From IMG/VR virus record IMGVR_UViG_641736216_000007: a stretch of 64,000 bases of DNA; one strand, written 5' to 3'. Numbering within the stretch: position 1 is the first letter of the stretch; each line of letters opens with the position of its first letter. This DNA comes from a virus (taxonomy: Duplodnaviria > Heunggongvirae > Uroviricota > Caudoviricetes). The translations under genes and the position numbers were made by a program. This document shows positions 1,711 through 44,070 of this stretch, in pieces. The notes under the pieces were generated by a model, which ran no database searches, had not been told where the DNA came from, and was given only the letters and a program-made list of their open reading frames with translations.

Positions 1711-2139
1711 TTATGAAACTAATTTAGTAAACATTTCTATTAATTCATTTTTTGCTACTCCAAATTCATCCCATTTTATATGGTTAAAAGATCTTATATC
1801 TTGCTTTAAGGCTTCTAAGCATATTGTGTAGTTCTGTTTTTCTACATATTCAAGTGCTAATCCATTTTGTTTAACTGCTTCAAGACATATTTCTTCTGTT
1901 TGCTCCTCTACAAATTTCAGAGCAATTCCATCCTGTTTTACCGCTTCTATACATATTTCATCAAGCTGTTCTTCTACAAATTGTAAAGCCATTCCACTCT
2001 CTTTTACCGCTTCTATGCATATATTTGGAGTCTGTTCTATTACATATTGAAGTTCAAACCCATTCTCCTTTACAGCTTTTATACACAACTCTTCAGTTTG
2101 TCTTCTTACTACATACAAACTATTTATATATTTAATCAT
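1711..2139 (-). CDS. DUF4116-type repeat protein (142 aa)
   Basis: Five tandem ~22-aa repeats of consensus EEICIEAVKQ(N/D)G(L/I)AL(E/K)(Y/F)V(K/E)EQT. Same family as 18235, 34622, 35109, 35472, 40806, 42489, 43636. Confidence 0.6.
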   Translation of the reverse strand: MIKYINSLYVVRRQTEELCIKAVKENGFELQYVIEQTPNICIEAVKESGMALQFVEEQLDEICIEAVKQDGIALKFVEEQTEEICLEAVKQNGLALEYVEKQNYTICLEALKQDIRSFNHIKWDEFGVAKNELIEMFTKLVS

Positions 2140-2190
2140 AATAAAATCTCCTTAAAATATATTAATTCAAATTAGAAATACTACTTATTT

Positions 2191-2736
2191 CTAATTAATA
2201 TCAGAATCTTTATCTATACTCTTTAAAGCTTTCACATACCATAAATTTTCTATATCACTATTACTAATCTCTTTTAAATCTTCTTCTCTTTCAATAACTC
2301 CCCAAAAACTTTCATTCCCATAAATTATTTCATTTAATTCAAATACAAATATAGCAGGGCTCATTCCAGAGTTTATATCTAATTCTTTTGTTTTAGGAGC
2401 ATAACTTATTGATAAGGAATTTGATAACTCTCCAAGATAAAAACCTAAATATGTTTTATTCTCATATTCTTTTTTACATGGTCTTACCTTAACAAATTTT
2501 CCTATTTTAGATTCCTTATAGTGACCTTTGTTTCTATATTTATTATTTATTTTATATACTTCAATTGGATATTCTATATTCATACTTCTATAGTTTTCGC
2601 ACATAAAATTTTCTTTAAATTCATTAGCTCCTACTGCTCCATCCATCTCATGTATTTTTATATATAATTTATTTCTTTCTAAAATTTCACAGTTTTTAAG
2701 AAATTGTTTAGAACAACTAAAACAATTTTTATCCAT
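2191..2736 (-). CDS. Hypothetical protein (181 aa). N-terminal CxxC...C.
   Basis: Intact ORF lying downstream of the Panacea/HAD cluster on the same strand. TTGATT-type promoter motif upstream at 2781-2804. Confidence 0.45.
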   Translation of the reverse strand: MDKNCFSCSKQFLKNCEILERNKLYIKIHEMDGAVGANEFKENFMCENYRSMNIEYPIEVYKINNKYRNKGHYKESKIGKFVKVRPCKKEYENKTYLGFYLGELSNSLSISYAPKTKELDINSGMSPAIFVFELNEIIYGNESFWGVIEREEDLKEISNSDIENLWYVKALKSIDKDSDIN

Positions 2737-2822
2737 ATAATTACACCTCTTTTTGTTTTGTATAATAAAATAGTAACATTTTTATTGTTTATAATCAACA
2801 AATTATTACTATTTTATTAGTA

Positions 2823-3182
2823 TTAAATTTTTTCCACATTAATTCTATCATTTACCCAATTCCCTTCTAATTTATCTATATCTAAATCCCACATTCCTCT
2901 ATTTATCATTTTAGAGTATGAAAAATCAGAAAAAGATAAGTCATCTATAATTAAATCGGGCTTCGGCATACAGAAGGCGATATAATCTACCAAATTCGCT
3001 TTATTAATTATTTCTTTTGTATAATTTAAACCACCTTTTGACCAAATTATTATATTAGCTTTTTTAGATAACTTTATTATGGACTCTATTGCTTTTGGAA
3101 AAAATGAATTTCCCATATCTGGAGTTATGGTATCATCTACATCTATATATATAGTTGCTAAGTCATCTTTATATTCTTTCAT
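2823..3182 (-). CDS. Small HAD-superfamily phosphatase-like protein (119 aa)
   Basis: HAD motif I DVDDTIT (DxDxT), motif II IIIWSKGG (S/T), motif III K (KPD), motif IV DD (LIIDD). Its start overlaps the stop of the upstream Panacea pseudogene (3182/3183), consistent with translational coupling. Confidence 0.5.
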   Translation of the reverse strand: MKEYKDDLATIYIDVDDTITPDMGNSFFPKAIESIIKLSKKANIIIWSKGGLNYTKEIINKANLVDYIAFCMPKPDLIIDDLSFSDFSYSKMINRGMWDLDIDKLEGNWVNDRINVEKI

Positions 3183-3704
3183 TTAATTCACCTCTTTCTC
3201 CTCTAACAAGAACTTTGGAATTAAAATACCATTATTTTCTTTAACCCAAAACTTTATATCTTGAGTTGGAATTGAACTATCACCTATTTTGTAATTCCAC
3301 ATAACAGGATAAGTATATAAAAGATATTTAACCAAATCCCAAGTATCTATATTTTTAGTAATATTAAGTACCTCTTCAATAACCTCTTTTTCTTCCTTTG
3401 TAAATAAATTGAAATCTATAGGGCAAAAACCTTTTATTATACGAAATTCAAATATTTTACTAATTTCAAACCAAAGCTTTGGCATAACTGGCTCATAATT
3501 TTAAGCTTCGAACCTTTCATCTAAATTTAAAAAGATGCTCTCATTATATAAATATAAATATTTTGCTTGAATTAAATACAATAACTTATTTAATCTCAAA
3601 TTATCTATTGCTTTATTCAATTTATTTTCACAGTACCATAGTACGTAGATTGCTACATCTTTGGCACTATATCTGGAATCCATAAAAATACTTTTATTTA
3701 CCAT
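3183..3704 (-). pseudogene. Panacea-domain (DUF4065) gene interrupted by a single in-frame TAA
   Basis: ORFs 3501..3704 (N-terminal DVAIYVLWYCENKL...LRLNKLLYLIQ) and 3183..3485 (C-terminal MPKLWF...) are in the same frame. The stop at 3501-3503 lies where the paralog 3715..4224 has the conserved Trp of FEAWDYGPTMPEIWF. Confidence 0.55.
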
Positions 3705-3714
3705 AAAAATCCCT

Positions 3715-4224
3715 CTATTCTTTACTTAAATTTAGCTTTTTATCTAATAATTCCTTAGATACCAATATCCCATTTCTTTTTTCTATATAGTATTCTATAT
3801 CAAATGAAGATATAGTTTGTCTACCTATAAAATGCTCTGGCTCCTCTAACCTTAAATATTCTATTATATCTTCAGTGCTTATATCTTTAGTAAGTTCTAT
3901 TACCTCCTCTATAGTATCTTTCTCTTTATCTTTCACTAAATCATTGTTTTTAGGTATGATGCCTGTAATTGGATTTGAATCAAATTCATAAAAAGTAAAC
4001 CAAATTTCAGGCATAGTTGGACCATAGTCCCAAGCTTCAAACCACTCAAATTTGTCATTAAAGATACTTTCTTTATATAAATAAAGATATCTCTCTTGAA
4101 TTAAATACAATAATTTTTGTAATCTCAAATTTGTAGATGGATTTTTTAATTTATTTTCACAATACCATAAAATATAATTTGCAATATCCACAGCATCATA
4201 ATCATTAAACTCTACATACCCCAT
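3715..4224 (-). CDS. Panacea-domain (DUF4065, PanA/SocA-like antitoxin family) protein
   Basis: N-terminal signature DVANYILWYCENKLKNP..NLRLQKLLYLIQ....F..FEAWDYGP. matches the KLQKLLY / AW.YGPV motifs of the GepA/DUF4065 family. 169 aa. Confidence 0.65.
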   Translation of the reverse strand: MGYVEFNDYDAVDIANYILWYCENKLKNPSTNLRLQKLLYLIQERYLYLYKESIFNDKFEWFEAWDYGPTMPEIWFTFYEFDSNPITGIIPKNNDLVKDKEKDTIEEVIELTKDISTEDIIEYLRLEEPEHFIGRQTISSFDIEYYIEKRNGILVSKELLDKKLNLSKE

Positions 4225-4453
4225 AAAACTTCACCTCTTTTATCTTAAATTTCGACCTCTCAATTTTCCATTTTTCTCAAGTTAGACTTATATTCTTCAT
4301 TTGTGATTAGCTCTTTACTCTGGCAAGAATTCTAATAACCAATCCATATAAAGTCATTTGTGCATATTAAAATTGGCTTATGTGGACAACTTTCTATATT
4401 ATCTACATACTTAGAATATTTACATTTTTACTCCTCCTTCTATAATTTTTCAT

Positions 4454-4924
4454 TTATTTTTCCATAGAGATCCAATACAAAAGATCCCATAGAGGAATCT
4501 CTTTTTCTTTGTGACCGCAATACGCTTTCCATACCTCGTCTTCCTGAGTTTCTTTTATTAAATCTTCAACATCTCTGTATACCAATGATGCTACCATCTC
4601 ATTTATAAATTTACTATCATCCTTAGTGGATATCTCAAAATATCTACATGGAAGAATTCCTGTTATATCTTCTACCCCATAATTATTGTAGGAATAATAA
4701 ACTTCGGGGAATACAATTCCATAAGACCAGGCCACCATGTAATTATCAAATAATAATTTATTAAATTTACAAATATATTTTTTTTGTATAAAATATAAAA
4801 TTCTTTGTAATTTAGAATTATTGATTGGATTTTTTAATTTATTTTCACAGTACCATAAAATATATTCAGCTACATCCATTGCATCATAATTAGGGCAAAA
4901 TCCAGTAAGATTAATAAATTCCAT
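4454..4924 (-). CDS. Panacea-domain (DUF4065) protein, divergent paralog
   Basis: AMDVAEYILWYCENKLKNPINNSKLQRILYFIQ...VAWSYGIVFPEVY. 156 aa. Confidence 0.65.
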   Translation of the reverse strand: MEFINLTGFCPNYDAMDVAEYILWYCENKLKNPINNSKLQRILYFIQKKYICKFNKLLFDNYMVAWSYGIVFPEVYYSYNNYGVEDITGILPCRYFEISTKDDSKFINEMVASLVYRDVEDLIKETQEDEVWKAYCGHKEKEIPLWDLLYWISMEK

Positions 4925-5040
4925 AAAATATCCTCCTTTAAAAATAATTATTATTTATATAAAACTTATAGACTTATTTTTATTATAGATTTGTACATAA
5001 TAAATAATTCACACATAAAACTATGTGTGAATTATTTAAA

Positions 5041-5910
5041 TTAAAAAGCTTCAGACTCTAATATTTTTTGAATACTTAATATTAACTCTTTTATTGCATT
5101 TATTTCATGGTCAGAAACATCTTTACTGCTTAAGTTCAACCAATCTAAGTATCTTTTATTTATATTATCACTAATAGAAATAAAATCTGAAAAACTATCT
5201 TTCAAGGAGATAATATCTTTTTCAAAATTTTCTGTGTCTATTTCTCTATATTTTATTAATTTGCCAAGAGGTACATTCCCTTTTTTTTCTAATATGTTAC
5301 CAACTTCTTGTATCAGTTGAAAATCTTCCATTTTTTTTAATAAGCATGTTAGATACATCCCAAATTTTATAATATCGGTTTCTTTTTTAATGAACCATTT
5401 CTCTTGATATTCTTTTTCCGAAAGCTTTAATTCTTTTTCTAATTTATCTATTAATGGTTTCTTATTTATAAACATTAGTTCATCAGAACTATCTCTTATC
5501 TCAATTATCAACTTATTTTTCTTTAATTCTATTTCTTTAATAATGCTTCTAAATTCTTCAAAACTTTTAAAAAATTTAGGGATATCTTCTAAATAATCGA
5601 TTTGTAATTCTCGTCCATCTTGAAAATATACTTTTTTGAAATTCTGTATTTCTATTTCTCCTATTTTATTAGTTTTTCCAATATATTTACCATCTCTTAC
5701 CTTAAGAAAATTCACTTTATTTTGGTCTATACTTAATACTAAAAAGCTTTTTGGATAATTATAATATAAGCTTTCTAAAGGCAGTCTGTCCATAATCTTA
5801 TAATTTTTATTCGAACCATTAATTACCTCAAGGCCACTACTTTTTGTATAAGATACTTTATTAAATAATCCTATTTTTATTCCTTCTAAATAATCAAATA
5901 TATATATCAC
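5041..5910 (-). CDS. Hypothetical protein (289 aa)
   Basis: Intact ORF. Consensus sigma-A-like promoter TTGACTATATAAAAT...TATAAT lies upstream on the minus strand (-35 at 5957-5962, -10 at 5934-5939). Confidence 0.5.
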   Translation of the reverse strand: MIYIFDYLEGIKIGLFNKVSYTKSSGLEVINGSNKNYKIMDRLPLESLYYNYPKSFLVLSIDQNKVNFLKVRDGKYIGKTNKIGEIEIQNFKKVYFQDGRELQIDYLEDIPKFFKSFEEFRSIIKEIELKKNKLIIEIRDSSDELMFINKKPLIDKLEKELKLSEKEYQEKWFIKKETDIIKFGMYLTCLLKKMEDFQLIQEVGNILEKKGNVPLGKLIKYREIDTENFEKDIISLKDSFSDFISISDNINKRYLDWLNLSSKDVSDHEINAIKELILSIQKILESEAF

Positions 5911-5933
5911 CTCATTTTATAATTATTACACTA

Positions 5934-5962
5934 ATTATAAAATTTGTATTTTATATAGTCAA
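5934..5962 (-). promoter_or_regulatory. Sigma-A-type promoter, subtype TTGACTATATAAAAT
   Basis: TTGACT, a 17-nt spacer, then TATAAT on the minus strand, upstream of 5041..5910. Confidence 0.5.
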
Positions 5963-6055
5963 TAAAAATTATAATTTTTCTAATAATTGTGTATATATAT
6001 TATATATTTTTAGTTTTATTTTAATATTTCAAGATAAATTTTAGGAGGTTTTATT

Positions 6056-6691
6056 ATGAATTTTAACAAGGATAATTTAGAAAAAAAAATTTTAAGACAT
6101 CAAATAATAAGAATTGATGGAAGTAATGTATTTTTTGAAGTTTTATCTAATGCTTTTCCAATAGGAAAAGTACAAATAAATTTTAGGAAATATGATAAAA
6201 ATGCAAATAAAGGTGAGAAATTTACTCAACAGGTAGATATATTTATAAACATAGAAAATGCCTTAGTATTGTGCCAAGATATATTATCTGGAAAAATAGA
6301 AAAATTAGCTGTTCTTTCTGAAAAGGAAGCTAAACAAAAAGATAGTAAGTATCCTCAGCCTATTTGGAAAAATTTAGGTGGTACATCTGTAAAAAAATTG
6401 AAAGAACAAAATAAAGAGAGAAAAGATGGCTATGCTCTATCAAGGATGTTAAAATTATCTCCTGGCAAAATTGGATTTTTATTTACAGCAGAAGAAGGTA
6501 AAGGAGAAGAAACAGATACAGGACTAATAACTCCAAGATATAATCAAAATCCTGATAGTAGAATTTTGGTCCCTTTAAATTCAGAACAATTAAAGACATT
6601 AGCTCTAATGATTAAGATACACATAGAATCTTATCTAACAATAAAATACAATCCATATTTTTCAAATTCGTATTGGGAAAATAAACAATAA
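6056..6691 (+). CDS. Hypothetical protein (211 aa)
   Basis: Intact ORF. SD TTTAGGAGG lies 8 nt upstream. Terminator hairpin at 6691-6708. Confidence 0.5.
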   Translation: MNFNKDNLEKKILRHQIIRIDGSNVFFEVLSNAFPIGKVQINFRKYDKNANKGEKFTQQVDIFINIENALVLCQDILSGKIEKLAVLSEKEAKQKDSKYPQPIWKNLGGTSVKKLKEQNKERKDGYALSRMLKLSPGKIGFLFTAEEGKGEETDTGLITPRYNQNPDSRILVPLNSEQLKTLALMIKIHIESYLTIKYNPYFSNSYWENKQ

Positions 6692-6697
6692 AAGAGC

Positions 6698-7363
6698 CTA
6701 TGGCTCTTTTATTTCTATATTATCTATTATTAATTGAATAATTGTAAAAATATTTATATTTATTATGTTAAATAAATCTATAGATAAATTATTTGTAACT
6801 ATTATAGCAAATATCATTTTTAGCACAAACCCCAAAAATCCAGTTACTATTAACCACTTAATATATTTCCTTATTTCACAAAAATTTTTATTTGCGAAAG
6901 AGATAAAAAATAATAAAATAAAAAACAGGGTTGGTATGAGGCATATAGCACTATTTACAACAAATAATAAACATATAGCTAATACTATAGATGTTTTTAA
7001 TAATAAGTTTTTATAGTCTCCTAATAGATCATAATTTTTAATTTTATACTCTATAAAATCATTGATTGATTGAGAAAGATTCCATATTACAACATTTGTA
7101 ACCTCATCATTTTTTTTTCTAAATTTTAATCTCCTGCCAATATAAATAGTTAAAAATATGCAGATAACACTATAAATAAAAAGCTCCCATTTAGCTACAA
7201 TAAAGGATGTTATTATTGAGATAATTAGTAAACCACAACATAACAATAGATTAGCGTCTATTTGAGTAAAAGGTATAAGCTTTTCCTCTAACATTTCTTC
7301 TTCTTGATTTTTTATATACTTTTCTTTTTTAATTTTCTCATCTCTATTTCTAATTATATTCAT
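6698..7363 (-). CDS. Integral membrane protein (221 aa, multi-TM)
   Basis: Several long hydrophobic segments. No recognisable family. Confidence 0.45.
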   Translation of the reverse strand: MNIIRNRDEKIKKEKYIKNQEEEMLEEKLIPFTQIDANLLLCCGLLIISIITSFIVAKWELFIYSVICIFLTIYIGRRLKFRKKNDEVTNVVIWNLSQSINDFIEYKIKNYDLLGDYKNLLLKTSIVLAICLLFVVNSAICLIPTLFFILLFFISFANKNFCEIRKYIKWLIVTGFLGFVLKMIFAIIVTNNLSIDLFNIININIFTIIQLIIDNIEIKEP

Positions 7364-7419
7364 ATTTATACTCCTTTCTTTTTATATATATTATTTAAAT
7401 ATATTTTTATTCATTTTCA

Positions 7420-7448
7420 TTGACTATATAAAATATAAAAATTATAAT
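7420..7448 (+). promoter_or_regulatory. Sigma-A-type promoter, TTGACT-17-TATAAT
   Basis: TTGACT at 7420-7425, TATAAT at 7443-7448, upstream of the LCP gene. Confidence 0.5.
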
Positions 7449-7485
7449 TAATATAATATATTAATTATAAAAGAAGGGAAAAATA

Positions 7486-8487
7486 ATGAAATCAAAAACT
7501 AAAAAAGTAATAAAATCAATATTTATTTTATTACTTATAGTAATAATGTTTATTGTTAGCTTCTTTACATCTTATACATTATCTAATAATAAAATCAAAA
7601 CAAAAGAGATAAAAGAAGATGCTATAAGTACAGAATCAAAAGAAAATAAATTTAAAAAAATAAATGGGATTACAAATATTCTCCTTTTAGGGACAGATGA
7701 AAGAAGTTCTAATGTAACAACAAGAACTGATACTATGATAATTCTAACTATAGACTCTGTAAACAATAAAATCAAACTAACTTCTCTTTTTAGAGATGCT
7801 TTAGTTAATATTCCAAACCATAATAAAGGAAAACTTAATCATTCTTATGCTTATGGTGGAGTAGACCTCTTAGAAAAGACTATTGAAGAAAACTATAACT
7901 TAACAATAGATAAATATGCTTTAGTTAATTTTAATGATTTTGTAAAAATAATAGATTTACTTGGTGGAGTTGAAGTTGAAATAAAAGAAGCTGAACTTAA
8001 AGACTTTAACAAACATCTAAAGGATATACCTAACAGCTCTAAAGAAATAACTTCTCCAGGGATAAAAACTCTTACAGGAGCTCAAGCATTGTCTTACACA
8101 AGAATAAGGTATAATTCTGGTGGGGAACAAGGAAGAACAGAGAGACAAAGAAAAGTTATTAGTTCTATGGCTAATAAAATGAAACATATTAGTATATTTA
8201 AATATCCAGCTATATTAAATTCAGTAATTAAATATATTGATACTAATTTAAGCTTTAAAGATATATTAAATATATTATATACAGCTAATAAAATAAATTT
8301 TAATGAAATTGAAACATTATCTATTCCTTTTGAAGAACTTTCTAAGTGTGGTAAATATAAAAATTATGGATGGGTTTTTCGAACTGATTTAGAATTAACA
8401 TCTGAAATATTAAATAATTATATATTTAAAGACATCCCCATTAACTTGAGTAATATAAATAAAAGAAACCTTATATTTATAGAGTAA
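7486..8487 (+). CDS. LytR-CpsA-Psr (LCP) family cell-envelope phosphotransferase
   Basis: N-terminal TM anchor, then NILLLGTDERS...RTDTMIILTID...LTSLFRDALVNIP...NHSYAYGG...IDKYALVNFNDFVKIIDLLGGVEV, which is the canonical LCP core. Confidence 0.85.
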   Translation: MKSKTKKVIKSIFILLLIVIMFIVSFFTSYTLSNNKIKTKEIKEDAISTESKENKFKKINGITNILLLGTDERSSNVTTRTDTMIILTIDSVNNKIKLTSLFRDALVNIPNHNKGKLNHSYAYGGVDLLEKTIEENYNLTIDKYALVNFNDFVKIIDLLGGVEVEIKEAELKDFNKHLKDIPNSSKEITSPGIKTLTGAQALSYTRIRYNSGGEQGRTERQRKVISSMANKMKHISIFKYPAILNSVIKYIDTNLSFKDILNILYTANKINFNEIETLSIPFEELSKCGKYKNYGWVFRTDLELTSEILNNYIFKDIPINLSNINKRNLIFIE

Positions 8488-8530
8488 CTTGCTTAGTATA
8501 TTTATTATATGCTACTATAATGATATACTA

Positions 8531-8818
8531 ATTAGGAGCTGTTAAATGTCAATAATCTACCTTTTTAAGGGCAGGCTTGAAATACTCTCCAAGTCGTATT
8601 GACCAGATTCAGTTTTTAAACTACATTATTGAGGTCATAACACCTATAAATGCTTCTCCAGTTTATGGGTACAAACAGTGTAATATGATATTAATCCTTA
8701 ATAATTTTATCAAGGATTGCAATTTGTTAATCATAGATATTTAAAACTAATACAAAAATGTAATGACCACAGATATGAGTTAAAGGCTCTTACTTAACAG
8801 AAATAGGGGGCAAGTTCC
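8531..8818 (+). repeat. Copy A of a ~290-bp repeated element, possibly a structured RNA leader
   Basis: About 88-90% identical to the reverse complement of 36133..36428. Ends at the AGGGGG SD and ATG of 8821..9090. Contains internal hairpins (e.g. AATCCTT-loop-AAGGATT). Confidence 0.55.
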
Positions 8819-8820
8819 TT

Positions 8821-9090
8821 ATGGAAGAAGAAGATAGAATTAAGAAAAGAAAAGATATTAAGGATTCAATAATTGGATTTGTAGTTAAAGTATTCATTAT
8901 GGGAATAGGCTTTATGTATATGAATGACCATATGGAAGCAGGCATATTGAATTTTTCTCTTCCATCTGGGAAAGAACTTTTTTCAATTAATGCTTTTCTT
9001 ATATTAAAATTTTTATTTAATTTAACATTAATTATTGAAGGTTTTACAATAATTGTTTCTATGATGAATTATTATATTGAAAATTTGTAA
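8821..9090 (+). CDS. Small membrane protein (89 aa)
   Basis: Two hydrophobic helices. Immediately preceded by repeat element copy A. Confidence 0.4.
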   Translation: MEEEDRIKKRKDIKDSIIGFVVKVFIMGIGFMYMNDHMEAGILNFSLPSGKELFSINAFLILKFLFNLTLIIEGFTIIVSMMNYYIENL

Positions 9091-9092
9091 AT

Positions 9093-9132
9093 AAAAAAGT
9101 AATACCAAATAAATGTCTGGTATTACTTTTTT
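9093..9132. terminator. Bidirectional rho-independent terminator
   Basis: GTAATACCA, a loop, then TGGTATTAC, followed by a T run. Lies between convergent genes. Confidence 0.55.
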
Positions 9133-9137
9133 ATTTA

Positions 9138-31060: not shown

Positions 31061-31087
31061 TAAACATCACCAAACTTTCATGTTATT

Positions 31088-35420: not shown

Positions 35421-35471
35421 TTTTATCTCCCTTTTCAGTTCATAATATTCATTAGTAACCTTATTCTCTTG

Positions 35472-36095: not shown

Positions 36096-36132
36096 AAAAA
36101 ATGCAAAAGGGGACACGCTACTTCAGTAGTGT

Positions 36133-36428
36133 GAGGAATTTACCCCTCTTTCTGTTAGGCAAGAGTCTTTAACTCATATCTGTAACCATCACCTTTTTGT
36201 ATTAGTTTTAAATATCTATGATTAACAAATTGCAATCCTTGATAAAATTATTAAGGATTAATATCATATTACACTGTTTGTACCCATAAACTGGAGAAGC
36301 ATTTGTAGGTGTTGTAACCTTAATAATGTAGTTTAAAACTGAATCTGGTCAATACGACTTGGAGATAACTTCAAGCCTACCTCTTTAGAGGTGGGTTATT
36401 GACTTAGACATCCTCCCTTATCCTAATT
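36133..36428 (-). repeat. Copy B of the ~290-bp repeated element, inverted relative to copy A
   Basis: Reverse complement aligns with 8531..8818 at about 88-90% identity, with small indels. Ends 37 nt upstream of the start of 35472..36095. Confidence 0.55.
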
Positions 36429-36549
36429 TAAAATATATTTAAATATTACATCTATGTTTACTTCATTATATATATTAAATTTATTTAGTATTCAAAAGCA
36501 TAAGGGAAAAAGAACATTATAATGCTCCTTTTAATATAATCTTCTTTGT

Positions 36550-39500
36550 TTATTTTTCTAAGTTTGATATTATATCCATTATAATATCTATTTTTATTTT
36601 ATATTTAAAGTATGATTTATGTATAAATGTTATATCTGTACAAATAAATCTTAATAATAAAGAATAAAAACCGTTTATATCATTTTTTAAAATTATTTTA
36701 AACACATGCTTAAATTTCTTAATATTATTTCTTGTGCCTACATCTAAATTAAATACAAGTGTTTCTAAATCAATATAATTAAAAAAATATTCATACTTAC
36801 TTTTTATTAGTTGCTCTGCTATTTTCCAATATTTATTAAAATCATTAAACAGTATTGAATTTATAAATCCAGCCATATTAGAACGTCTTTGACTATGAAT
36901 TGTACTATATAATAAGCAGGTAAATTTATCATCTATGAATATAGAAGTATCTTCAGCTTTTGAAATTTCAAAAGCTTCCATATCTGCAGAATACATAACC
37001 TGTTCAGGTATAGATACATAGTGTTTTATGTATATATCTTTAGAAATTATTTTTCCTTTCTTTAAAGATTCAATTATCTTATTGAAGTTTTTTAATTCTA
37101 TTTTTTTTTCTTTTTGATCTTTCTCAAAAAAAACCAACTTTTTCTCTATTGAATATATTTTTACGCTTTTATTGCTAAAATTAATAGTTAATTCACTTAT
37201 TGTGTCTTCTATACTTTCAATTAAACGCCTTGGTACATAAACATCATAATAACTCATAAATTCATCAAGTAAATTGACTTTGCTCAATAATAAAGTACTA
37301 ACTATTGTTAATACAACTTTACTTCCTTCTTCTATAATATTTGACATCCCTGATTTAAAAAACAAGTTTTTGTCTTTTAGTAAATAATCAATATTCCCAT
37401 TAACATTTTCTATCTGTGGAAGCAGATAATTTATAGGTAGTTCAAATCCTCCCATTGATTTATCTTTTCCTAAATAACCATCAAGACGTTTATTAAAATT
37501 ATCTATATCTTTTTGGAGTTCACGTATTAAATCATTGTCAGTGTTTTCAATTAAGTCCTTCTCATTTATTGAAAGCATTTTTATATTATCATCTTTTTCT
37601 TTAACTCTAATATTAAAACATGACCTTGTTAAAAAATCATATTTATTAATTATCTCTATTATTTTATATTCTTTTTGTTTAAAGTTAATTTCATCATTAA
37701 CTTTACTTCCTAAAAGTTCTATCCATAAACCTTCATTCATATTAATATGTAAACAACCAAATCGGATATCATTTATTCTGTAAAAAACTTCTTTATTTAA
37801 ACAAACTTTTAATTCTTCTTTACCTGATTTTAATATAATAACATCATCAAGTTCAACTTGTTTAATCAAATCTTTATGTTCTTCAAAATCAGATACGTTT
37901 TGTATTTCATTAGACAATAAAATTTGCCAAATTCTAATAGCTGAATCTATGTCCATATTGTTCATATTAAAAGCAATCTTATAACTTAATTCTCTTGCTT
38001 TAGTCACTTCTCCAAGTTTTAAATAGGTTTCACTCGCTGTCATTAAATACTGTAAATCTTTCTCATTGTTTAATATGTCGGCAAATTCCTTTAAATCAAT
38101 TAGTTCTTTATTTATTAATTTCATTCGTGTTAGTTCATTAAGCCAATATAATTTTTTAGTATTATTAAATGCTTTTTTTGCTATAAAGTAAGCTCCTCTA
38201 TATAGCTTTTTTTTAATATAAATAGAATAAATACCTCTCTCTACATATTCATTACAAGTATCAATGTAGCATCTTATATAAATATCTAAAATATCATCAA
38301 AATACGCCTCCATATTTTTACTTATTGTAATGGATATGTATCTCTTTAGAAATCTTATATCATAAATACTATTTTCTTTTACTATAGCCAAAGACTTCTC
38401 AGTATTATCCATATTCATATATTCATCTGCAACATCTAATAAAATAAGGTCTTTATTTTTTGTATTGTTAACAATCTTGTCTAAATAAAATTCACTCTTT
38501 TCCTTATTCTTCGAGTTAGCTTTAGCACGCAAAAAATCTATCAGATTTCCTTCTGCTTTACATTCTTTTTCTATTACATTAATTGTGTATTCTTCTCCAT
38601 ATAGATTCAATAGAGAAAAACCATATGCATAAAAAGCAAAGTCTATATTTTCTAAATAATCTCTATATTTTATAAATAATTCTTTTACTTTAGACCAATT
38701 TTCCATACATAAACAATTATTAATAACACTTGATATATATATATTAATATTACCATTATTTTCTAAAAGGTATTTACAAATCTTATCAGCTTCTTCATAT
38801 TTTCCATTTAAATTAAAAATATTTATTTTTAAAACATAAAATTCAGTATCTTTTTCAAATTTATCTGAAAGATTAGAAATCTCTTCAAGTGCTAAGCTCT
38901 TGTCACTAAATAAAATCATTTGAAGTTTATAATAAGATATTTCTCTAAATTGATTAAATTCCAATTTCTCTAAATTGATATTTTTTATTTCTTCGATACA
39001 GTCACTAAAAACAACCCTCTCACCCTCTGTGAGTTCACCAAGTTCTCTATCAATACTAAATACAGATAAGGCTTTGCAAAGTATATATTCAGCTTTATAT
39101 GTATCTCCTTTTTCTTTAATTTCAAATAAGAGTTTCTCTGCTTCATCAAATTTTTCAATTTTAATAAAAGATTTAGCTACATATAATTTTATCTCTGGTG
39201 CATCTAAATCCTTTTCATTGTTAAATCTTTCAATTAAAACATCATACTGTTTAGAAAAATATAAGTATTTAATTTCATTACTATCTATTTTTGAACTATC
39301 CATATCAAGACTTTCCCATGTAGATTTTAACTCTTTAAAAATACTATCACTTTGTGAAAAAGTAGCTATGTTAAATTTAACATTTAGAAACTCAGCCGTT
39401 TTATCTCCATATGCTTCAAGTTCTTTAAAATATTCAGATAATCTCTCTTGCTTATTTGTTAATAGTGCTAAAAAACAATTATATTGTAATAATTTTCTTT

Positions 39501-39759
39501 CAACAGCTTCGCTAAACCTATCTTGTTTTTTTCTATATATCCAGTTAATCTTATCCTCTATTTCTTCATATTCTTGCCTATCAAATAAAGACTCTATTTC
39601 ATCTAATTTATCCTTCATATACTCATCTACAATTTTTTCATTTTTGTAAGTATTTGATTCTTGTATTATAGTATTCCCACTTAAAATTACCCCATTTACC
39701 TTTTGTTCAGATATATTGTTCTTAAAAAGAAATCTACTTAATATTTTTTTTATTCCCAT
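36550..39759 (-). CDS. Large alpha-helical, TPR-like repeat protein (1069 aa)
   Basis: Long helical-repeat architecture with no catalytic motif recognised. The family is uncertain. Confidence 0.5.
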   Translation of the reverse strand: MGIKKILSRFLFKNNISEQKVNGVILSGNTIIQESNTYKNEKIVDEYMKDKLDEIESLFDRQEYEEIEDKINWIYRKKQDRFSEAVERKLLQYNCFLALLTNKQERLSEYFKELEAYGDKTAEFLNVKFNIATFSQSDSIFKELKSTWESLDMDSSKIDSNEIKYLYFSKQYDVLIERFNNEKDLDAPEIKLYVAKSFIKIEKFDEAEKLLFEIKEKGDTYKAEYILCKALSVFSIDRELGELTEGERVVFSDCIEEIKNINLEKLEFNQFREISYYKLQMILFSDKSLALEEISNLSDKFEKDTEFYVLKINIFNLNGKYEEADKICKYLLENNGNINIYISSVINNCLCMENWSKVKELFIKYRDYLENIDFAFYAYGFSLLNLYGEEYTINVIEKECKAEGNLIDFLRAKANSKNKEKSEFYLDKIVNNTKNKDLILLDVADEYMNMDNTEKSLAIVKENSIYDIRFLKRYISITISKNMEAYFDDILDIYIRCYIDTCNEYVERGIYSIYIKKKLYRGAYFIAKKAFNNTKKLYWLNELTRMKLINKELIDLKEFADILNNEKDLQYLMTASETYLKLGEVTKARELSYKIAFNMNNMDIDSAIRIWQILLSNEIQNVSDFEEHKDLIKQVELDDVIILKSGKEELKVCLNKEVFYRINDIRFGCLHINMNEGLWIELLGSKVNDEINFKQKEYKIIEIINKYDFLTRSCFNIRVKEKDDNIKMLSINEKDLIENTDNDLIRELQKDIDNFNKRLDGYLGKDKSMGGFELPINYLLPQIENVNGNIDYLLKDKNLFFKSGMSNIIEEGSKVVLTIVSTLLLSKVNLLDEFMSYYDVYVPRRLIESIEDTISELTINFSNKSVKIYSIEKKLVFFEKDQKEKKIELKNFNKIIESLKKGKIISKDIYIKHYVSIPEQVMYSADMEAFEISKAEDTSIFIDDKFTCLLYSTIHSQRRSNMAGFINSILFNDFNKYWKIAEQLIKSKYEYFFNYIDLETLVFNLDVGTRNNIKKFKHVFKIILKNDINGFYSLLLRFICTDITFIHKSYFKYKIKIDIIMDIISNLEK

Positions 39760-39772
39760 AATATTAGTCCCT

Positions 39773-40135
39773 TTATTTATTATCTTGTTTTATTTTATTT
39801 TTAGATATTTTTTTACCCTTAATAATTTGTTTATTATCTTCATTTTTCTTACTCTCACTTGATTGTGTTATTTCATTATTTAAGATATCTTTACCTTTAA
39901 TAATTTGTTTGTTACTTTTTTTGTTTCTATTTATTTTATTTTGACGCACCCCTATAAAAGTTAATACTACAGTTACTATCCCTATTACAATTGTACCTAT
40001 AGCTCCTATCTTGCTCCAATCTAAATTATCCATTATCTCACCTCTATTATAGAATATTTTTTCTCTATAATTAAAATTATATCCTAAATAAAATGTATAC
40101 TTCAACAAGTAATAAAAAGGTGCTTTTAAAAGCAC
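39773..40135 (-). CDS. Small membrane-anchored Lys-rich protein (120 aa)
   Basis: One TM helix followed by the internal repeat NKQIIKGK(D/K)I. Confidence 0.35.
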   Translation of the reverse strand: MLLKAPFYYLLKYTFYLGYNFNYREKIFYNRGEIMDNLDWSKIGAIGTIVIGIVTVVLTFIGVRQNKINRNKKSNKQIIKGKDILNNEITQSSESKKNEDNKQIIKGKKISKNKIKQDNK

Positions 40136-40148
40136 CTTTTTATTACAA

Positions 40149-40667
40149 TTATTTTTTTATATATCCTAAACTATATGCTCGATTTGAAGCATCTCTTTGA
40201 TTGACATTAAAATATTTAGAAACTTTATCTATATTAATTACACCATTTTCTTCGATAAGCTCAAATTCACTTTTAGGCATTAATAATGCAAGTGCAAACT
40301 CTTTAACTTGTTCTTCTTCTTGCAAATTTTTACTTTTATAAAATTCATTTATTTTCTGAGAATTCCATATATCATCATCTATATTATATCTCATGTGCAA
40401 AAATAAGTGTCCTAATGCTTTAGCTATATGCATATTGGATATATGATTGGATTGACCATAAGGAATTACTATTTCAAATTCATAATGATAATTCTTTAAT
40501 TTTCTAATATAAGAGTCTGAAAATTTACTTAAAGAATTATCTTTTTTAATTATTCCTCCCATTTTATCAACAACATTATTCATATCTTTTATTGGAATTT
40601 CAATCATATAAATGTCTATTATATCCTTTGTTAGTTCATTAATTAAATTAATATTCTTTTTATTCAT
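40149..40667 (-). CDS. ImmA/IrrE-family (DUF955) metallopeptidase-like protein with a degenerate HEXXH
   Basis: MHIAKALGHLFLH aligns with the ImmA AHELGHlllH motif with H->K and E->A substitutions. ...FALALLMPKSEF matches the family LLMP motif. Terminator hairpin at 40114-40144. Confidence 0.45.
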   Translation of the reverse strand: MNKKNINLINELTKDIIDIYMIEIPIKDMNNVVDKMGGIIKKDNSLSKFSDSYIRKLKNYHYEFEIVIPYGQSNHISNMHIAKALGHLFLHMRYNIDDDIWNSQKINEFYKSKNLQEEEQVKEFALALLMPKSEFELIEENGVINIDKVSKYFNVNQRDASNRAYSLGYIKK

Positions 40668-40805
40668 AATAATCCCCCTAAATATTTATAAATTTATATT
40701 TATTTTTATAAATAAATATAAATATTATTATTTTTTATAAAATAATATATTATTTTATGATTTTTATTAATATAAATATTTTTTATAAGTATTTTATATT
40801 TTTTA

Positions 40806-42476
40806 CTATTTATTTTCCAAATATTTTAAAAAATTTAAATACTCATCTTTTCGAGAACTTAAGATATAATATTTAAAAATATTTTCATCATTTACCAACA
40901 TCTTATAAAAATCTTCTACCTTAATTATTTCATCACACTCAAATACTAAATACCAAATATGGTCAAGTTTAAAGGCATTTATTTCTTCATGTCCATTACT
41001 ATTTTTAAATATCTTCTTTTCTATCTTATTTTTCAACTTAAGTTTTTTCAAATTTTCTTTTTTGTTTAATTCATTTAACATATCATCTTTAATAAAACTT
41101 AAGTTGACTAAGTCTCCTTTTATTGCTTCTATACATACTTCTACTGTTTGCTCTTTTACGTATTGAAAAGCTCTTTTGTCATTTTTAGTAGCTTCAAGAC
41201 AAATCTCCTCCGTTTGTTCTTTTACATACATTAAATACCATCCTTTTTGTTTTACTGCTTCTAAACATATTTCAGGTGTCTGTTTTTTTACATCTCTAAT
41301 CGCAAATCCATCTTGTCTTACTGCTATTAAACATATCTCTTCGGTTTGATTTTCCACATATTGTAAAATCATACCATTTTTTTTAACTGCTTCTTTACAT
41401 ATATCTTCTGTTTGCTTATTTACATATTTAAGAGCTTTACCATCTTGTCTTACTGCTATTAAACATATATTATGAGTTTGTTCTTTAACATACTTTAAAG
41501 CCAAACCGTTTTGTTTTACTGCTTCTATACAGATTTCTTCTGTCTGCTCCTTTACATACTCAAGAGCTAAACCGTTTTGTTTTACTGCTTCTATACAGAT
41601 TTCTTCTGTCTGCTCCTTTACATACTCAAGAGCTAAACCGTTTTGTTTTACTGCTTCTATACAGATTTCTTCTGTCTGCTTCTTTACATACTCAAGAGCT
41701 AAACCATTTTGTTTTACTGCTTCAAGACATATTTCTTCCGTCTGTTCTTTTACATACTCAAGAGCCAAACCATTTTGTTTTACTGCTAATAAACAAAGTT
41801 CTTCTGTTTGCTCTTTTATATATATTAAAGCTAAGCCATCATTTTTTACTGTTTCTTTATAAATTTCTTCTGTTTTGTTTTTTATAAAAAGCAAAGCTGA
41901 AATATCTTGTTTAATAGCTTCTATATAAATCTTATTTTTTTGCTTTTCTGTAATAAAAAATGAATCAAATTTTGCATATTGTAAAGCTAATCCATTTTGT
42001 CTTACTGCTATTAGGCATAAATTATAGTCCTGTTTTTTTATATCTTCTAAAATATATCCATTTTGTTTGACTGCTTCAGTGAATATATTATATATCTGTT
42101 CATCTGATAAATTTAATTTATTAAAATCTACAGCTTTTAGAGAAAATGCATTTTGTCTTACTGCTTCAAGACAAATTTCTTCTATTTCTTTAGCTGACAA
42201 ATTAAGTTCATTAAACTTTATATACTCAAGTGCATACCCATGTTTTTTAACTGCCTCTATACATATCTGTTTAATATCTATATCCGATAAGGCATATTTT
42301 TTAAAATCCACATATTTCAATTCTAAACCATTGTTCTTTACAGCACTTAAATATAAATTAAATACTTGTTCTTTTGTTAAATCTAATTTATTAACATCTA
42401 CAATATTTAAACTTTCTTTTTGTTCTGTAATTCTTACTAAATAGTTTTCGAATTTTTTACTATTCATATAATTCAC
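40806..42476 (-). CDS. DUF4116-type repeat protein (556 aa). N-terminal ~36-aa repeats, then 22-aa repeats and a distinct C-terminal domain.
   Basis: About 20 repeats, including four near-identical QTEEIC(L/I)EAVKQNGLALEYVKE units. SD AGAGGGAG and ATG at 42476. Confidence 0.65.
   Translation of the reverse strand: MNYMNSKKFENYLVRITEQKESLNIVDVNKLDLTKEQVFNLYLSAVKNNGLELKYVDFKKYALSDIDIKQICIEAVKKHGYALEYIKFNELNLSAKEIEEICLEAVRQNAFSLKAVDFNKLNLSDEQIYNIFTEAVKQNGYILEDIKKQDYNLCLIAVRQNGLALQYAKFDSFFITEKQKNKIYIEAIKQDISALLFIKNKTEEIYKETVKNDGLALIYIKEQTEELCLLAVKQNGLALEYVKEQTEEICLEAVKQNGLALEYVKKQTEEICIEAVKQNGLALEYVKEQTEEICIEAVKQNGLALEYVKEQTEEICIEAVKQNGLALKYVKEQTHNICLIAVRQDGKALKYVNKQTEDICKEAVKKNGMILQYVENQTEEICLIAVRQDGFAIRDVKKQTPEICLEAVKQKGWYLMYVKEQTEEICLEATKNDKRAFQYVKEQTVEVCIEAIKGDLVNLSFIKDDMLNELNKKENLKKLKLKNKIEKKIFKNSNGHEEINAFKLDHIWYLVFECDEIIKVEDFYKMLVNDENIFKYYILSSRKDEYLNFLKYLENK
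41518..41781. repeat. Four tandem 66-bp repeats (22-aa unit). Copies 1-2 are identical and copy 3 differs by 1 nt.
   Basis: Unit ACTGCTTCTATACAGATTTCTTCTGTCTGCTCCTTTACATACTCAAGAGCTAAACCGTTTTGTTTT at 41518, 41584, 41650 and 41716. Confidence 0.85.
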
Positions 42477-42488
42477 TCCCTCTAAATG

Positions 42489-42749
42489 TTATTTACCTGA
42501 TAGTATATTTAATTTCTTTATTTCTTCTTCTGTAAAGTCAACCTCTTCCCATTTTATACAATCTATAGCATCTTTATCTTGCTCAATAGCTTTTAAACAT
42601 ACTAAATATGTCTGCTTGTCTACAAATTGTAAAGCTTTTCCATAAATGCTAACAGCATCCAAACACATTTCTTCTGTTTGATCTTCTGAACTTGCTAATA
42701 ATCTTATGACCCAAGCATTATTCTTACTCATATTTCTACCTCTCTTCAT
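42489..42749 (-). CDS. Small DUF4116-type protein (86 aa)
   Basis: QTEEMCLDAVSIYGKALQFVDKQTYLVCLKAIEQ. A separate gene lying 12 nt upstream of 40806..42476. Confidence 0.45.
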   Translation of the reverse strand: MKRGRNMSKNNAWVIRLLASSEDQTEEMCLDAVSIYGKALQFVDKQTYLVCLKAIEQDKDAIDCIKWEEVDFTEEEIKKLNILSGK

Positions 42750-42867
42750 TTTATTTATATAAAAACTTTTTAAATTTAACTATTATACTATAAAATTAAT
42801 AAAACTATAATGTAAACAATCTCTTTTTTATAATAACAAAAAAAGAGATTGTTTACATTTTTATTTA

Positions 42868-43482
42868 TTAAATTTGATCTATACAAAGCTTTATATATTC
42901 ATACGTTTTGGGATTGTTTAATAATAATCTTTCTGGATTTATTAGATATTCTTCAAAAGATTGAGCAAAGTATTCAGACACATTTCTTAAATAATAGCTT
43001 TTATCTTTATCTTTATTTAATATTAAATTGTCTTTTTCTCTTTCATATATTTTAATAAATTCATTTTTATCCATATAAGATATTTCATCTACAAAATGCC
43101 CAAATTCATGTAATAAAGATTGTTCTGCCCAGTCTTTATTACTACTTAAATGTATTGTTTTATCAAAATAAACTCCAGACAATATGTAATTACTCAAAAA
43201 TCTTTCTTGAAGAGATTTATTCGTTATTTCTATTTTCATTTTATTTTCTATAAATTTCTCTATAATATTTTCAGGAATAACATCAAGATATTTATATACT
43301 TTGAATTGAGTATTGTAATCAACCCCATCTAACTCTATAAAAGAACTATAATCAAAAGCTTCACTTCTTATATGTTCTATTTCCAAGTCGGAAATTTCTT
43401 TATCTCTATAAGCATTAACTTCTGAGCTACAACTTATAAATAACAAAAATACAGTAATTATAAATTTAATTTTATTTAGCAT
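42868..43482 (-). CDS. Secreted zinc metalloprotease of the anthrax-lethal-factor-like / Pro-Pro endopeptidase (PPEP/Zmp1)-like family
   Basis: Signal peptide. HEFGHFVDE HEXXH motif with a downstream SEYFAQSFEEY (third-ligand Glu region). About 200 aa, like C. difficile Zmp1. Confidence 0.55.
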   Translation of the reverse strand: MLNKIKFIITVFLLFISCSSEVNAYRDKEISDLEIEHIRSEAFDYSSFIELDGVDYNTQFKVYKYLDVIPENIIEKFIENKMKIEITNKSLQERFLSNYILSGVYFDKTIHLSSNKDWAEQSLLHEFGHFVDEISYMDKNEFIKIYEREKDNLILNKDKDKSYYLRNVSEYFAQSFEEYLINPERLLLNNPKTYEYIKLCIDQI

Positions 43483-43635
43483 TAAAATAATATCCCTTAA
43501 TTAAAAATTATTAAAGGTATCTCCTTTCTTTATATGATTTTTATATTATAGTTTTTCAATTACTTTTTATTAAAAGTAATTGAATGACAACAAAAAGACA
43601 CTCTTATAATTAAAGAGTGTCATCTAAATAAAATC

Positions 43636-44070
43636 CTATATTATTCTTTTTGAATCAGCATTAATATCACAACCTACTTTTTCCCAGTTAAAATTTTTTA
43701 AAACTTCTTTGTCCTGTTTAACAGCTTCAAAACATAAATTCAACTTTTCTTCATCTGAAAAATTAAATTGTTCCCATTCTATATAAAATATAGAATGGCT
43801 GTTTTGTTTTACTGCTTCTAAACATAATTCATATACTTGTTTTTTTGTTAAATTTTTAAAATCTATAAATTTTAAAACCAATCCACTTTGTCTTACTCCT
43901 TCAAGATACAACATATATATCTGCTCTTTAGACAAATTAATATCATTCCATTTTATATCCTGTAAAGTAAATCCATTTTGTTTAACTGCCACCAAACATA
44001 TTTCATATGTTTGGTGGTCTACATGTTTTAAATAACTACTGAATCTACTTACTTTTTCAAAATCATTCAT
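43636..44070 (-). CDS. DUF4116-type repeat protein (144 aa)
   Basis: CLVAVKQNGFTLQDIKWNDINLSKEQ, CLEAVKQNSHSIFYIEWEQFNFSDEEKL. Terminator at 43597-43621. Confidence 0.5.
   Translation of the reverse strand: MNDFEKVSRFSSYLKHVDHQTYEICLVAVKQNGFTLQDIKWNDINLSKEQIYMLYLEGVRQSGLVLKFIDFKNLTKKQVYELCLEAVKQNSHSIFYIEWEQFNFSDEEKLNLCFEAVKQDKEVLKNFNWEKVGCDINADSKRII

Follow-up and report, generated by a model that had tools for sequence, protein, structure and literature searches.

A large family of DUF4116 repeat proteins with a shared C-terminal domain on a Clostridioides megaplasmid

The 64,000-nucleotide stretch of DNA analysed here (the window; IMG/VR record IMGVR_UViG_641736216_000007) carries one arm of a multigene family of DUF4116 repeat proteins. 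These are real, conserved alpha-solenoid proteins, cytoplasmic as judged from their N-termini, and they are encoded by a known megaplasmid of Clostridioides. The canonical protein consists of a short N-terminus, a variable number of 22- or 30-amino-acid (aa) units and a conserved alpha/beta C-terminal domain (CTD). The core of this finding is ordinary, because the proteins belong to DUF4116 and lie on an already annotated plasmid. The scale of the expansion, the uncatalogued CTD and its recurrence on other large mobile elements appear to be undescribed in the literature searchable here, and in the full-text literature we found no functional study of DUF4116 (PF13475).

The window has a GC content of 24% and aligns to the Clostridioides difficile BI1 plasmid NC_017177.1 (FN668943) with 99.95% identity, 2 mismatches and 29 small gaps; the part from 34000 to 44500 is 100% identical. 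It corresponds to the reverse complement of that record, a circular 'unnamed plasmid' of 300,869 bp, in two blocks across the record origin. Given this identity, the window is a sister strain's copy of the BI1-type megaplasmid, and its context is a known, already annotated, low-GC Clostridioides extrachromosomal element of about 300 kb. The element was mentioned earlier as extrachromosomal DNA of about 300 kbp with CRISPR arrays (PMC4173771), and it is listed among the C. difficile 'megaplasmids' (PMC6807378). Epidemic lineages of C. difficile are among its carriers. Exact copies of two proteins of the window, the 864-aa SbcCD-like and the 172-aa ImmA/IrrE protein, occur in dozens of assemblies, never on a contig larger than 1 Mb, and all Clostridioides family members recovered by search lie on contigs of 306 kb or less. 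A related megaplasmid, pESW1602 (305,867 bp, about 82% identical to the BI1 plasmid), comes from a pond-water isolate of a cryptic Clostridioides species (PMC8942030). A giant-virus or eukaryotic origin of the window, an idea raised by the 24% GC together with DUF4116, was ruled out by the identity to a Clostridioides plasmid and is also contradicted by bacterial genes (penicillin-binding protein, Cu_amine_oxidN1, and components of a type IV secretion system (T4SS)).

A sequence-only reading of the window had described eight minus-strand genes built from one 22-aa unit and without signal peptides, and had assigned them to a DUF4116-type family. All eight open reading frames (ORFs) are present on the minus strand at the coordinates given there, and their translations are built of EQTEEICLEAVKQNGLALEYVK-like units. 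A six-frame motif scan of the 64 kb found 39 units, every one of them within the eight ORFs and none on the plus strand. The PF13475 hidden Markov model (HMM) matched all eight, with E values from 5.1e-84 (556 aa) to 3.7e-05 (86 aa). For membership the score of the whole protein had to reach the gathering value of the HMM, 24.9 bits. Seven ORFs exceed it (81.7, 63.8, 140.1, 47.0, 124.5, 276.1 and 42.1 bits); the 86-aa ORF scored 23.6 bits, slightly below the threshold. By a unit HMM built from the window this ORF contains two units (E 6.7e-12), and its orthologue is 93.8% identical with a nonsynonymous to synonymous rate ratio (dN/dS) of 0.10. Five of the eight are labelled 'DUF4116 domain-containing protein' in RefSeq and three 'hypothetical', and the latter can now be named DUF4116. 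The genes are the following.

1711-2139, minus strand: DUF4116 gene, 142 aa; five 22-aa units (spacing 22, 22, 22, 22), no CTD; Pfam E 2.7e-23; RefSeq 'DUF4116 domain-containing protein'; pESW1602 orthologue 75% identical.
18235-19242, minus strand: canonical member, 335 aa; mostly 30-aa units (spacing 30, 30, 32, 30, 27), then the conserved CTD; Pfam E 1e-17; pESW1602 orthologue (P0019) 84% identical and of equal length.
34622-35420, minus strand: frameshift-split DUF4116 gene, comprising ORFs 35109-35420 (103 aa, Pfam E 1.9e-12) and 34622-35131 (169 aa, Pfam E 1.6e-41); no CTD.
35472-36116, minus strand: DUF4116 gene, 214-aa ORF with a probable start ATG at 36095 (207 aa); Pfam E 1.1e-36; dN/dS 0.35.
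40806-42467, minus strand: largest window member, 553 aa; 30-aa units, an array of 22-aa units and a diverged CTD; Pfam E 5.1e-84 over 11 stretches; 18 units by the unit HMM.
42489-42749, minus strand: small DUF4116 gene, 86-aa ORF (80 aa in RefSeq), recognised by the unit HMM and its orthologue.
43636-44070, minus strand: DUF4116 gene, 144 aa; 30-aa units, no CTD; Pfam E 6.2e-11; four units by the unit HMM; orthologue 59.9% identical, dN/dS 0.39.

The ORFs 35109-35420 and 34622-35131 have 23 nt in common, and a single repeat unit runs across the two frames (...REDGLILYR and a stop in the first, MVLSYIDKQTEEMC in the second). They are therefore a single frameshifted gene, so that the eight ORFs stand and the count of eight genes becomes seven loci. 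All seven assemblies that were inspected show the split. The syntenic stretch examined in pESW1602 had no visible counterpart and contains a 96-aa DUF4116-like ORF in its place, and neither of the two ORFs has a reciprocal best hit in that plasmid. The 214-aa ORF ends in the 'last-repeat' motif ICIEALKQNK... and is thus truncated ahead of the CTD; its pESW1602 orthologue, of 227 aa, ends in ...YIRDKEKVIGRF, with the first residues of the CTD linker only. The likeliest start of the 556-aa ORF is the ATG at 42467, downstream of a AGAGGGAG ribosome-binding site, which gives the 553 aa of RefSeq, and the pESW1602 orthologue of this gene is truncated at the position of a TnpB insertion sequence (IS) element. 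The 86-aa ORF is in frame with the 553-aa gene, and between them lie one TAA stop and a good ribosome-binding site. A CTD is present at two of the seven loci (18235-19242 and, in diverged form, 40806-42467), the others being CTD-less, truncated or split. The orthologues in pESW1602 speak for genes that are real and conserved in a relative, and against spurious ORFs.

None of the eight ORFs has a hydrophobic N-terminus, the maximum 19-residue Kyte-Doolittle mean within the first 40 residues being 0.40 or less by a crude test that is not a dedicated signal-peptide predictor; the neighbouring anthrax-lethal-factor-type (ATLF) protein, used as a positive control, gave 1.73. This agrees with the absence of signal peptides claimed earlier and supports a cytoplasmic location of the family proteins, as far as hydropathy can indicate it.

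In the window genes the unit anchors lie 22 aa apart in 22 cases and exactly 30 aa apart in nine, with stragglers from 27 to 32; the long variant, earlier put at about 36 aa, thus measures 30 aa. The 22-aa unit forms two helices and the 30-aa unit three. Within the unit, Q2, C7, A10, V11, L18 and V21 are conserved, and positions 16, 19 and 4 are the most variable. Positions 16 and 19 are three residues apart on the short second helix. The variable positions keep 70-74% identity between orthologues, as would fit paralogue-specific surface residues under constraint. A DUF4116-CTD protein on a 213-kb IMG/VR contig (L035, 7140-8186) has units of the form PSEEVQLEAVKQNG.AI.YI, in which Gln replaces the near-invariant Cys of the Clostridioides units, so the repeat can do without this Cys.

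The AlphaFold2 model of the 335-aa protein (predicted local distance difference test, pLDDT, 90.8; predicted template modelling score, pTM, 0.83) is the alpha-solenoid of helical hairpins that had been expected. Residues 1-258 form stacked hairpins of a long and a short helix, to which the 30-aa units add a third short helix, and beyond residue 258 the chain forms a compact alpha/beta domain, the CTD. DUF4116 had previously been predicted to be an alpha-solenoid by contact-based modelling (PMC8078820), and the same fold was obtained here. A Foldseek search of the solenoid against the PDB returned nothing significant, the best matches being the importin-alpha ARM repeats and designed helical repeats (E 0.045-0.1, TM-score 0.1-0.3). 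Modelled alone, the CTD (pLDDT 87.8) has four beta strands, a helix, a DGG loop and a second helix starting at HR. It resembles the SsgA, Pur-alpha and PC4 (whirly-like beta4-alpha) domains weakly. Its best structural matches in BFVD, a collection of viral structures, are the C-termini of phage left-handed beta-helix (LbH), pentapeptide-repeat and leucine-rich-repeat (LRR) proteins, and these matches are consistent with the finding from sequence, given below, that the CTD caps different repeat scaffolds.

The observation made in the sequence-only reading is confirmed, with the corrections given here, and its interpretation is supported in part; the reading missed both this conserved CTD and the origin of the DNA from an annotated megaplasmid. 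About 30 BI1 members end in one conserved non-repeat module of about 55-78 aa, with the consensus DKEKYLEEF.IKYLEAQG.A.EVIAIKEDGEWLFT.GCQ.NITKEEFI.RIYN..GGFDLEKGINVHRQ.YLDFL..F and the signature W.F.IGCQ.NITKEEF..RIYN.DGG..(P)HR..YL. The two copies in the window are the following.

18238-18462, minus strand: CTD of the 335-aa protein, 75 aa, ...VIAIFIDGRWLFTIGCQNNITKEEFLYRIYNENGGFDLEKGINVHRKIYLDFLEQFL; conserved in about 30 plasmid paralogues.
40809-41090, minus strand: diverged CTD of the 553-aa protein, …EEINAFKLDHIWYLVFECDEIIKVEDFYKMLVN…RKDEYLNFLKYLENK.

The diverged copy has 20-22% identity to the CTD of the 335-aa protein and retains the W, C, F and YL.FL positions. A fragment of the 553-aa protein (P0015) matched the CTD profile at 1e-27, a value to be read knowing that this sequence was itself in the profile.

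The CTD lies outside PF13475 and all library models. Against Pfam-A 2025 the stand-alone CTD proteins matched nothing at E <= 0.1 and the plasmid CTDs nothing notable at E <= 1; there was no match in NCBIfam 20.0 or among PDB sequences, and PHROGs v4 gave only weak matches (P0150 to phrog_20532, E 2.6e-4, and to phrog_6372, 1.5e-3). A HMMER search of 1.84e9 representative proteins gave 85 CTD hits at E <= 1e-3, of which 23 were at E <= 1e-10, sharing the core W.F.IGCQ.NI(T/S)KE.FI.RI(Y/H)N.DGGL..NPHR.EYL. Four contexts of the CTD can be told apart in these proteins. It follows DUF4116 repeats, YdcK-type beta-solenoid repeats (phrog_7964 and phrog_5070, both phage families) or unrelated helical N-termini (for example in a Lachnospiraceae metagenome-assembled genome), or it makes up a protein of 70-100 aa by itself. 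Judged from the sequences that surround it, the CTD is a separate mobile domain. Its Clostridioides type was found in two of 72,556 PLSDB plasmids, namely the two megaplasmids, at 30 and 34 places, and in none of 50,697 GenBank phage records; the generic form matches one GenBank phage record. A sequence search with 23 CTDs returned only short Clostridioides proteins, and scans for further loci gave one locus in genome contigs and none in metagenome contigs. The domain deserves its own family model for annotation.

For the size of the family, every stop-to-stop ORF of each whole plasmid was scanned with the 22-aa unit HMM. The BI1 plasmid has 58 family ORFs with 447 units, 34 of the ORFs carrying a CTD, and pESW1602 has 59 with 416 units, 36 carrying a CTD. 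About one fifth of the genes of the megaplasmid belong to the family, and the repeat units alone make up at least 10% of its DNA (447 units of 66 nt). Most of the BI1 family ORFs (49 of 58) lie at 94-188 kb of the record, all on the record minus strand, and nine lie in the arm that contains the window. The density of eight genes in 44 kb reported earlier is therefore an understatement, the window being part of the minor arm of a much larger family.

Between the BI1 plasmid and pESW1602 there are 32 reciprocal-best syntenic pairs, whose identities run from 41 to 94% and reach at least 56% in 29 pairs. The best paralogue within the plasmid is 36-64% identical, and the orthologue scores higher than the best paralogue in 30 of the 32 cases and lower in two. 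Since orthologues are closer than paralogues, the expansion is old and predates the split of the two plasmids; its members keep their identities and are individually maintained, without concerted evolution. The dN/dS values against pESW1602 are 0.10-0.39 for four window family genes and 0.16-0.33 for four non-family neighbours. The notion of a rapidly diversifying family is thus not supported at the level of sequence. Turnover does occur. About half of the BI1 members have no clear (reciprocal-best) orthologue in pESW1602, and decay is ongoing in the form of frameshifts, IS (TnpB) insertion and CTD-only gene fragments. At a GC content of 24%, intact family ORFs as long as 780 aa are retained. 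In this turnover units are gained and lost, and genes are frameshifted, interrupted by an IS (TnpB) element or left to decay.

The gain and loss of units is seen in the 553-aa gene, where within-gene repeat turnover, also proposed earlier, was borne out by a comparison of strains. Alleles of 531, 553 or 575 aa occur in otherwise identical C. difficile plasmids, and in the strain alignment they differ only by one, two or three copies of the identical unit QTEEICIEAVKQNGLALEYVKE. The change in copy number is located in the following array.

41245-41873, no strand assigned: 66-bp tandem DNA repeat (Tandem Repeats Finder: 9.5 copies, 78% matches), encoding near-identical 22-aa units.

A homologue search with the 553-aa protein was dominated by generic DUF4116 proteins and did not recover strain variants.

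The architecture recurs on other large elements. A 231-kb metagenomic contig (L017; GC 27%) has eight tandem DUF4116-CTD genes on one strand, adjoined by genes for a tubulin-family protein, ThyX and thymidylate kinase (2794-6913 and 8001-16430). Apart from the family genes it is unrelated to the BI1 plasmid, and it looks like a jumbo-phage-like or megaplasmid-like element. Two DUF4116-CTD genes are in tandem on a GC-20% contig that also encodes a dUTPase, a T2SSE ATPase and SbcCD, the 213-kb IMG/VR contig has one, and on a 106-kb IMG/VR phage contig a beta-solenoid-CTD gene adjoins a DNA ligase gene. DUF4116 repeats are also present in jumbo phages of 200-490 kb. Other proteins in the databases join DUF4116 to RING, U-box, F-box, AAA and further domains, and in such fusions the repeat region would typically be a binding module.

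The same DUF4116 repeat is present in all eight window ORFs, one 49-position PF13475 model covering two 22-aa units. The megaplasmid subfamily differs from other DUF4116 proteins in its conserved CTD, in alternating 22-aa and 30-aa units and in its number, about 58 ORFs on one replicon. With ARM and HEAT repeats such as those of importin-alpha it shares a right-handed stack of short helices, which in ARM and HEAT proteins is a protein-binding surface. This is a resemblance in kind only, since the units are of 22 or 30 aa and not about 40, there is no ARM or HEAT Pfam match and the Foldseek values (E at least 0.045, TM-score at most 0.3) do not place the proteins in that class. The phage YdcK-type beta-solenoid proteins (phrog_7964 and phrog_5070) end their repeat scaffold in the same CTD (GCQ.NITKEEFI.RIYN.DGGL..NPHR.EYL) and are likewise small, cytoplasmic and carried by mobile elements. 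However, their scaffold is a beta-helix, they are usually single genes, and their CTD is without the FDLEKGI insertion typical of the Clostridioides copies. The ankyrin-repeat families of poxviruses, giant viruses and Wolbachia phage WO also comprise tens of short-repeat paralogues with variable repeat number and birth-and-death evolution, and poxvirus ankyrin proteins have a constant C-terminal module (PRANC/F-box) after the repeats, as in the DUF4116-CTD architecture. The present family differs from these in its repeat, its C-terminal domain and its bacterial host, and it is not known to be linked to ubiquitin-like pathways or to host range.

The eight window ORFs share one orientation, as described earlier. 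The suggestion that this is a meaningful feature of the family was rejected, since 44 of the 61 non-overlapping window ORFs are on the minus strand (P = 0.06 that all eight would be) and family orientation flips with the GC skew of the plasmid, at about 250 kb and about 70 kb, following the replichores and thus the direction of replication. Upstream of many paralogues there is a shared element, ATATTAAATA - N - GTATTATAAAAATAA, about 20-30 nt before a strong ribosome-binding site, and related elements lie 10-70 nt upstream of many. The two-box pattern has seven occurrences on the plasmid, all upstream of family genes. For the -10-like box the figure is 13 of 43, such upstream windows making up about 0.6% of the sequence. 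From these patterns each family gene appears to be its own transcription unit, with the promoter probably duplicated along with the gene. Two putative elements of this kind are in the window.

19265-19300, minus strand: promoter-like element CTATATTAAAC-N-GTTTATATAAAAATAA, then ribosome-binding site GGGGAG; it fits a looser consensus, by eye only.
44094-44127, minus strand: promoter-like element CTATAATAAAC-N-GTTTATATAAATAA, resembling the element 5' of 18235-19242.

The best explanation that we can offer, and it is a tentative one, is that the family members are cytoplasmic adaptors, a panel of binders that share one docking domain. The solenoid would be a variable surface that recognises a target, and the CTD a constant module docking every paralogue to one common partner or output, by self-association or by binding a nucleic acid or a protein. 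On such a model the element would encode about 50 distinct, individually maintained binders, each with its own promoter and transcribed co-directionally with replication, and the repertoire would change through unit gain and loss, gene duplication and gene decay. Targets would most plausibly be host or competing-element proteins, in element-host or element-element conflict or takeover, because both the arrays and the CTD turn up again on elements of jumbo-phage or megaplasmid size and in phage repeat proteins.

Several observations weigh against such a panel. Gene context indicates no binding partner, and the PADLOC-DB 2.0 defence models match neither the repeats nor the CTD (queries: the 335-, 553- and 169-aa proteins, the CTD-only P0140 and the beta-solenoid-CTD P0164); membership in a known defence system was rejected on this result. 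The Cys of the GCQ motif is replaced in several paralogues, and is thus not an obligatory catalytic or metal ligand. Many members are without a CTD, including those at five of the seven window loci, and some of these are conserved, such as the 86-aa gene with its dN/dS of 0.10, so the CTD is not needed for every function of the family. Family sequences evolve no faster than neighbouring genes, which argues against an intense arms race. The copy-number differences in draft genomes may also partly be assembly artefacts, since short reads can miscount repeats, and contigs break within the 553-aa gene in two assemblies.

Perhaps the proteins have an architectural or nucleoid role instead, the CTD binding DNA, RNA or FtsZ/tubulin-like filaments, and the solenoids polymerising or coating so as to organise, partition or protect the replicon. 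The elements that carry the family are indeed very large and have partition and tubulin genes of their own, and the CTD's partner repeats in phages are YdcK-type beta-solenoids, which are frequently annotated as polymer-forming proteins. On the other hand, about 50 diverged, individually conserved paralogues are not required for such a role, net charge varies widely (isoelectric point, pI, 4.5-9.7) and many conserved members are without a CTD. We consider this role unlikely.

A defence or anti-defence repertoire, in which each paralogue would neutralise (as a decoy or inhibitor) or sense a different host or phage protein, has a similarly small chance of being the answer. Such a repertoire would be comparable to the ankyrin-repeat families that act in the host range of large DNA viruses. 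It would account for the restriction of the family to mobile elements, including jumbo-phage-sized contigs, for the birth-and-death dynamics with pseudogene remnants and for the unit copy-number polymorphism between strains, and on the plasmid the family genes are interspersed with IscB/TnpB, methyltransferases, a NERD nuclease, a cyclic-oligonucleotide-based antiphage signalling system (CBASS) and CRISPR-Cas. However, the defence models gave no match, dN/dS is not raised and half of the members are stable orthologues across species. No linked CTD-bearing effector enzyme was found. The CTD as a homotypic adaptor to an enzymatic effector was rejected, there being no CTD-effector fusion on either plasmid, CTD-only ORFs being decayed gene fragments and the non-DUF4116 partners of the CTD having no Pfam enzyme domains. 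A location in the leading region was also rejected, since gene order appears to put the arrays past the tra genes, whereas that region would be expected on the opposite side, across the relaxase gene. A DNA-mimic anti-restriction function (ArdA/Ocr-like), for which a strongly acidic surface throughout (pI about 4) would be expected, or a uniform decoy is not supported either, given a family pI from 4.45 to 9.69 (median 5.8) and no sequence or fold match.

Improbable in our view is a bolder form of the adaptor panel, a combinatorial recognition repertoire on very large mobile elements in which dozens of solenoid 'receptors' would recognise distinct host or invader molecules and signal or dock through one shared CTD (GCQ...PHR). 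If this were true, the CTD, which phages also put on beta-solenoid, pentapeptide and LRR scaffolds, would count as an adaptor domain not described before, and the elements would encode a recognition system of a new class.

That the proteins are translocated effectors, exported through the T4SS or Tad machinery of the plasmid and delivered to recipient bacteria or host cells, is very doubtful. The plasmid does encode a VirD4/TraG-like coupling protein, T4SS ATPases, PrgI and a Tad-like pilus, and DUF4116 often accompanies RING, U-box and F-box domains, which are characteristic of eukaryotes and giant viruses; but the family proteins are without signal peptides by hydropathy, phage-like contigs that have no T4SS show the same architecture, the plasmid is non-mobilizable by MOB-suite typing and Gram-positive conjugative T4SSs are not known to inject effectors into eukaryotic cells. 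A functionless selfish expansion of duplicated, decaying repeat DNA, with no selected protein function, is just as remote: frameshifted, truncated, IS-interrupted and fragmentary copies do occur and about half of the BI1 members are without a reciprocal-best orthologue, but the idea is largely refuted by selection and orthology (dN/dS 0.10-0.39, intact ORFs of up to 780 aa at 24% GC, 32 syntenic orthologues kept over about 18% nucleotide divergence), by the conserved ribosome-binding sites and promoter-like elements and by the confident predicted fold.

Whichever of these explanations applies, the family offers a testable system, with a variable solenoid, a constant uncatalogued CTD, individually conserved paralogues and recurrence on unrelated elements of the 200-kb class. 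If one small domain were characterised, an entire class of proteins from large mobile elements of bacteria could be accounted for.

Among the neighbouring genes, 42868-43482 (minus strand) lies between two DUF4116 genes and encodes a 204-aa protein with an ATLF-type metalloprotease domain (Pfam 4.5e-12). It is kept in pESW1602 (64.9% identity, dN/dS 0.16) and is likely to be secreted, as its hydrophobic N-terminus suggests. An ImmA/IrrE (M78) metallopeptidase gene (40149-40667, minus strand) lies directly 3' of the 553-aa DUF4116 gene, and its product is the only neighbour matching PADLOC models, those for RmrA and CapP (E 4e-8 to 2e-5). This adjacency is kept in pESW1602, with a TnpB IS element in between. 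Genes for DUF6076 proteins are convergent with adjoining DUF4116 genes in two pairs, at 1072-1677 (plus strand) in the window and at 34956-35885 of NC_017177.1, and pESW1602 has minus-strand 'hypothetical' genes at the same positions beside both DUF4116 genes, a match of position only. DUF6076 and DUF4116 may be functionally paired. Also among the DUF4116 genes is a 1069-aa protein (36550-39759, minus strand) with no Pfam, NCBIfam or PADLOC match, which is 64% identical in pESW1602 with a dN/dS of 0.32.

Elsewhere in the window, all on the minus strand, are genes for a giant putative surface adhesin of 2669 aa with seven Bact_surface_Ig-like domains and C-type lectin domains (9138-17147), a class A penicillin-binding protein of 867 aa that is intact in the window and given as two coding sequences in the BI1 record (54315-56918), and a fused SbcD-SbcC-like protein of 864 aa (Metallophos and AAA_23; 57336-59930). 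Beyond the window, NC_017177.1 encodes a type I-B CRISPR-Cas system, a CBASS pair (a DncV-like cyclase and a SAVED-domain protein) and IscB/TnpB elements, as well as its own DnaE, primase, LigA, NrdJ, ClpX, FtsH, a sigma-70-family factor (210132-210779 of the record), a T4SS and a Tad-like pilus. One family paralogue there (123205-123708, minus strand) has a strongly hydrophobic tail (LIAIILCIIILVIIFISIFIYIYF...) where the CTD would be, and may be the DUF4116 protein chosen for an 'amyloidogenic' SIAIILCILIL-like motif in a 2026 paper (PMC13119156). The second repeat protein of the window, 512 aa of homing-endonuclease-associated repeats (HNH_repeat, 2.3e-26), is encoded at 21064-22602 on the minus strand, and a 189-bp tandem DNA repeat lies within its gene at 21087-21446.

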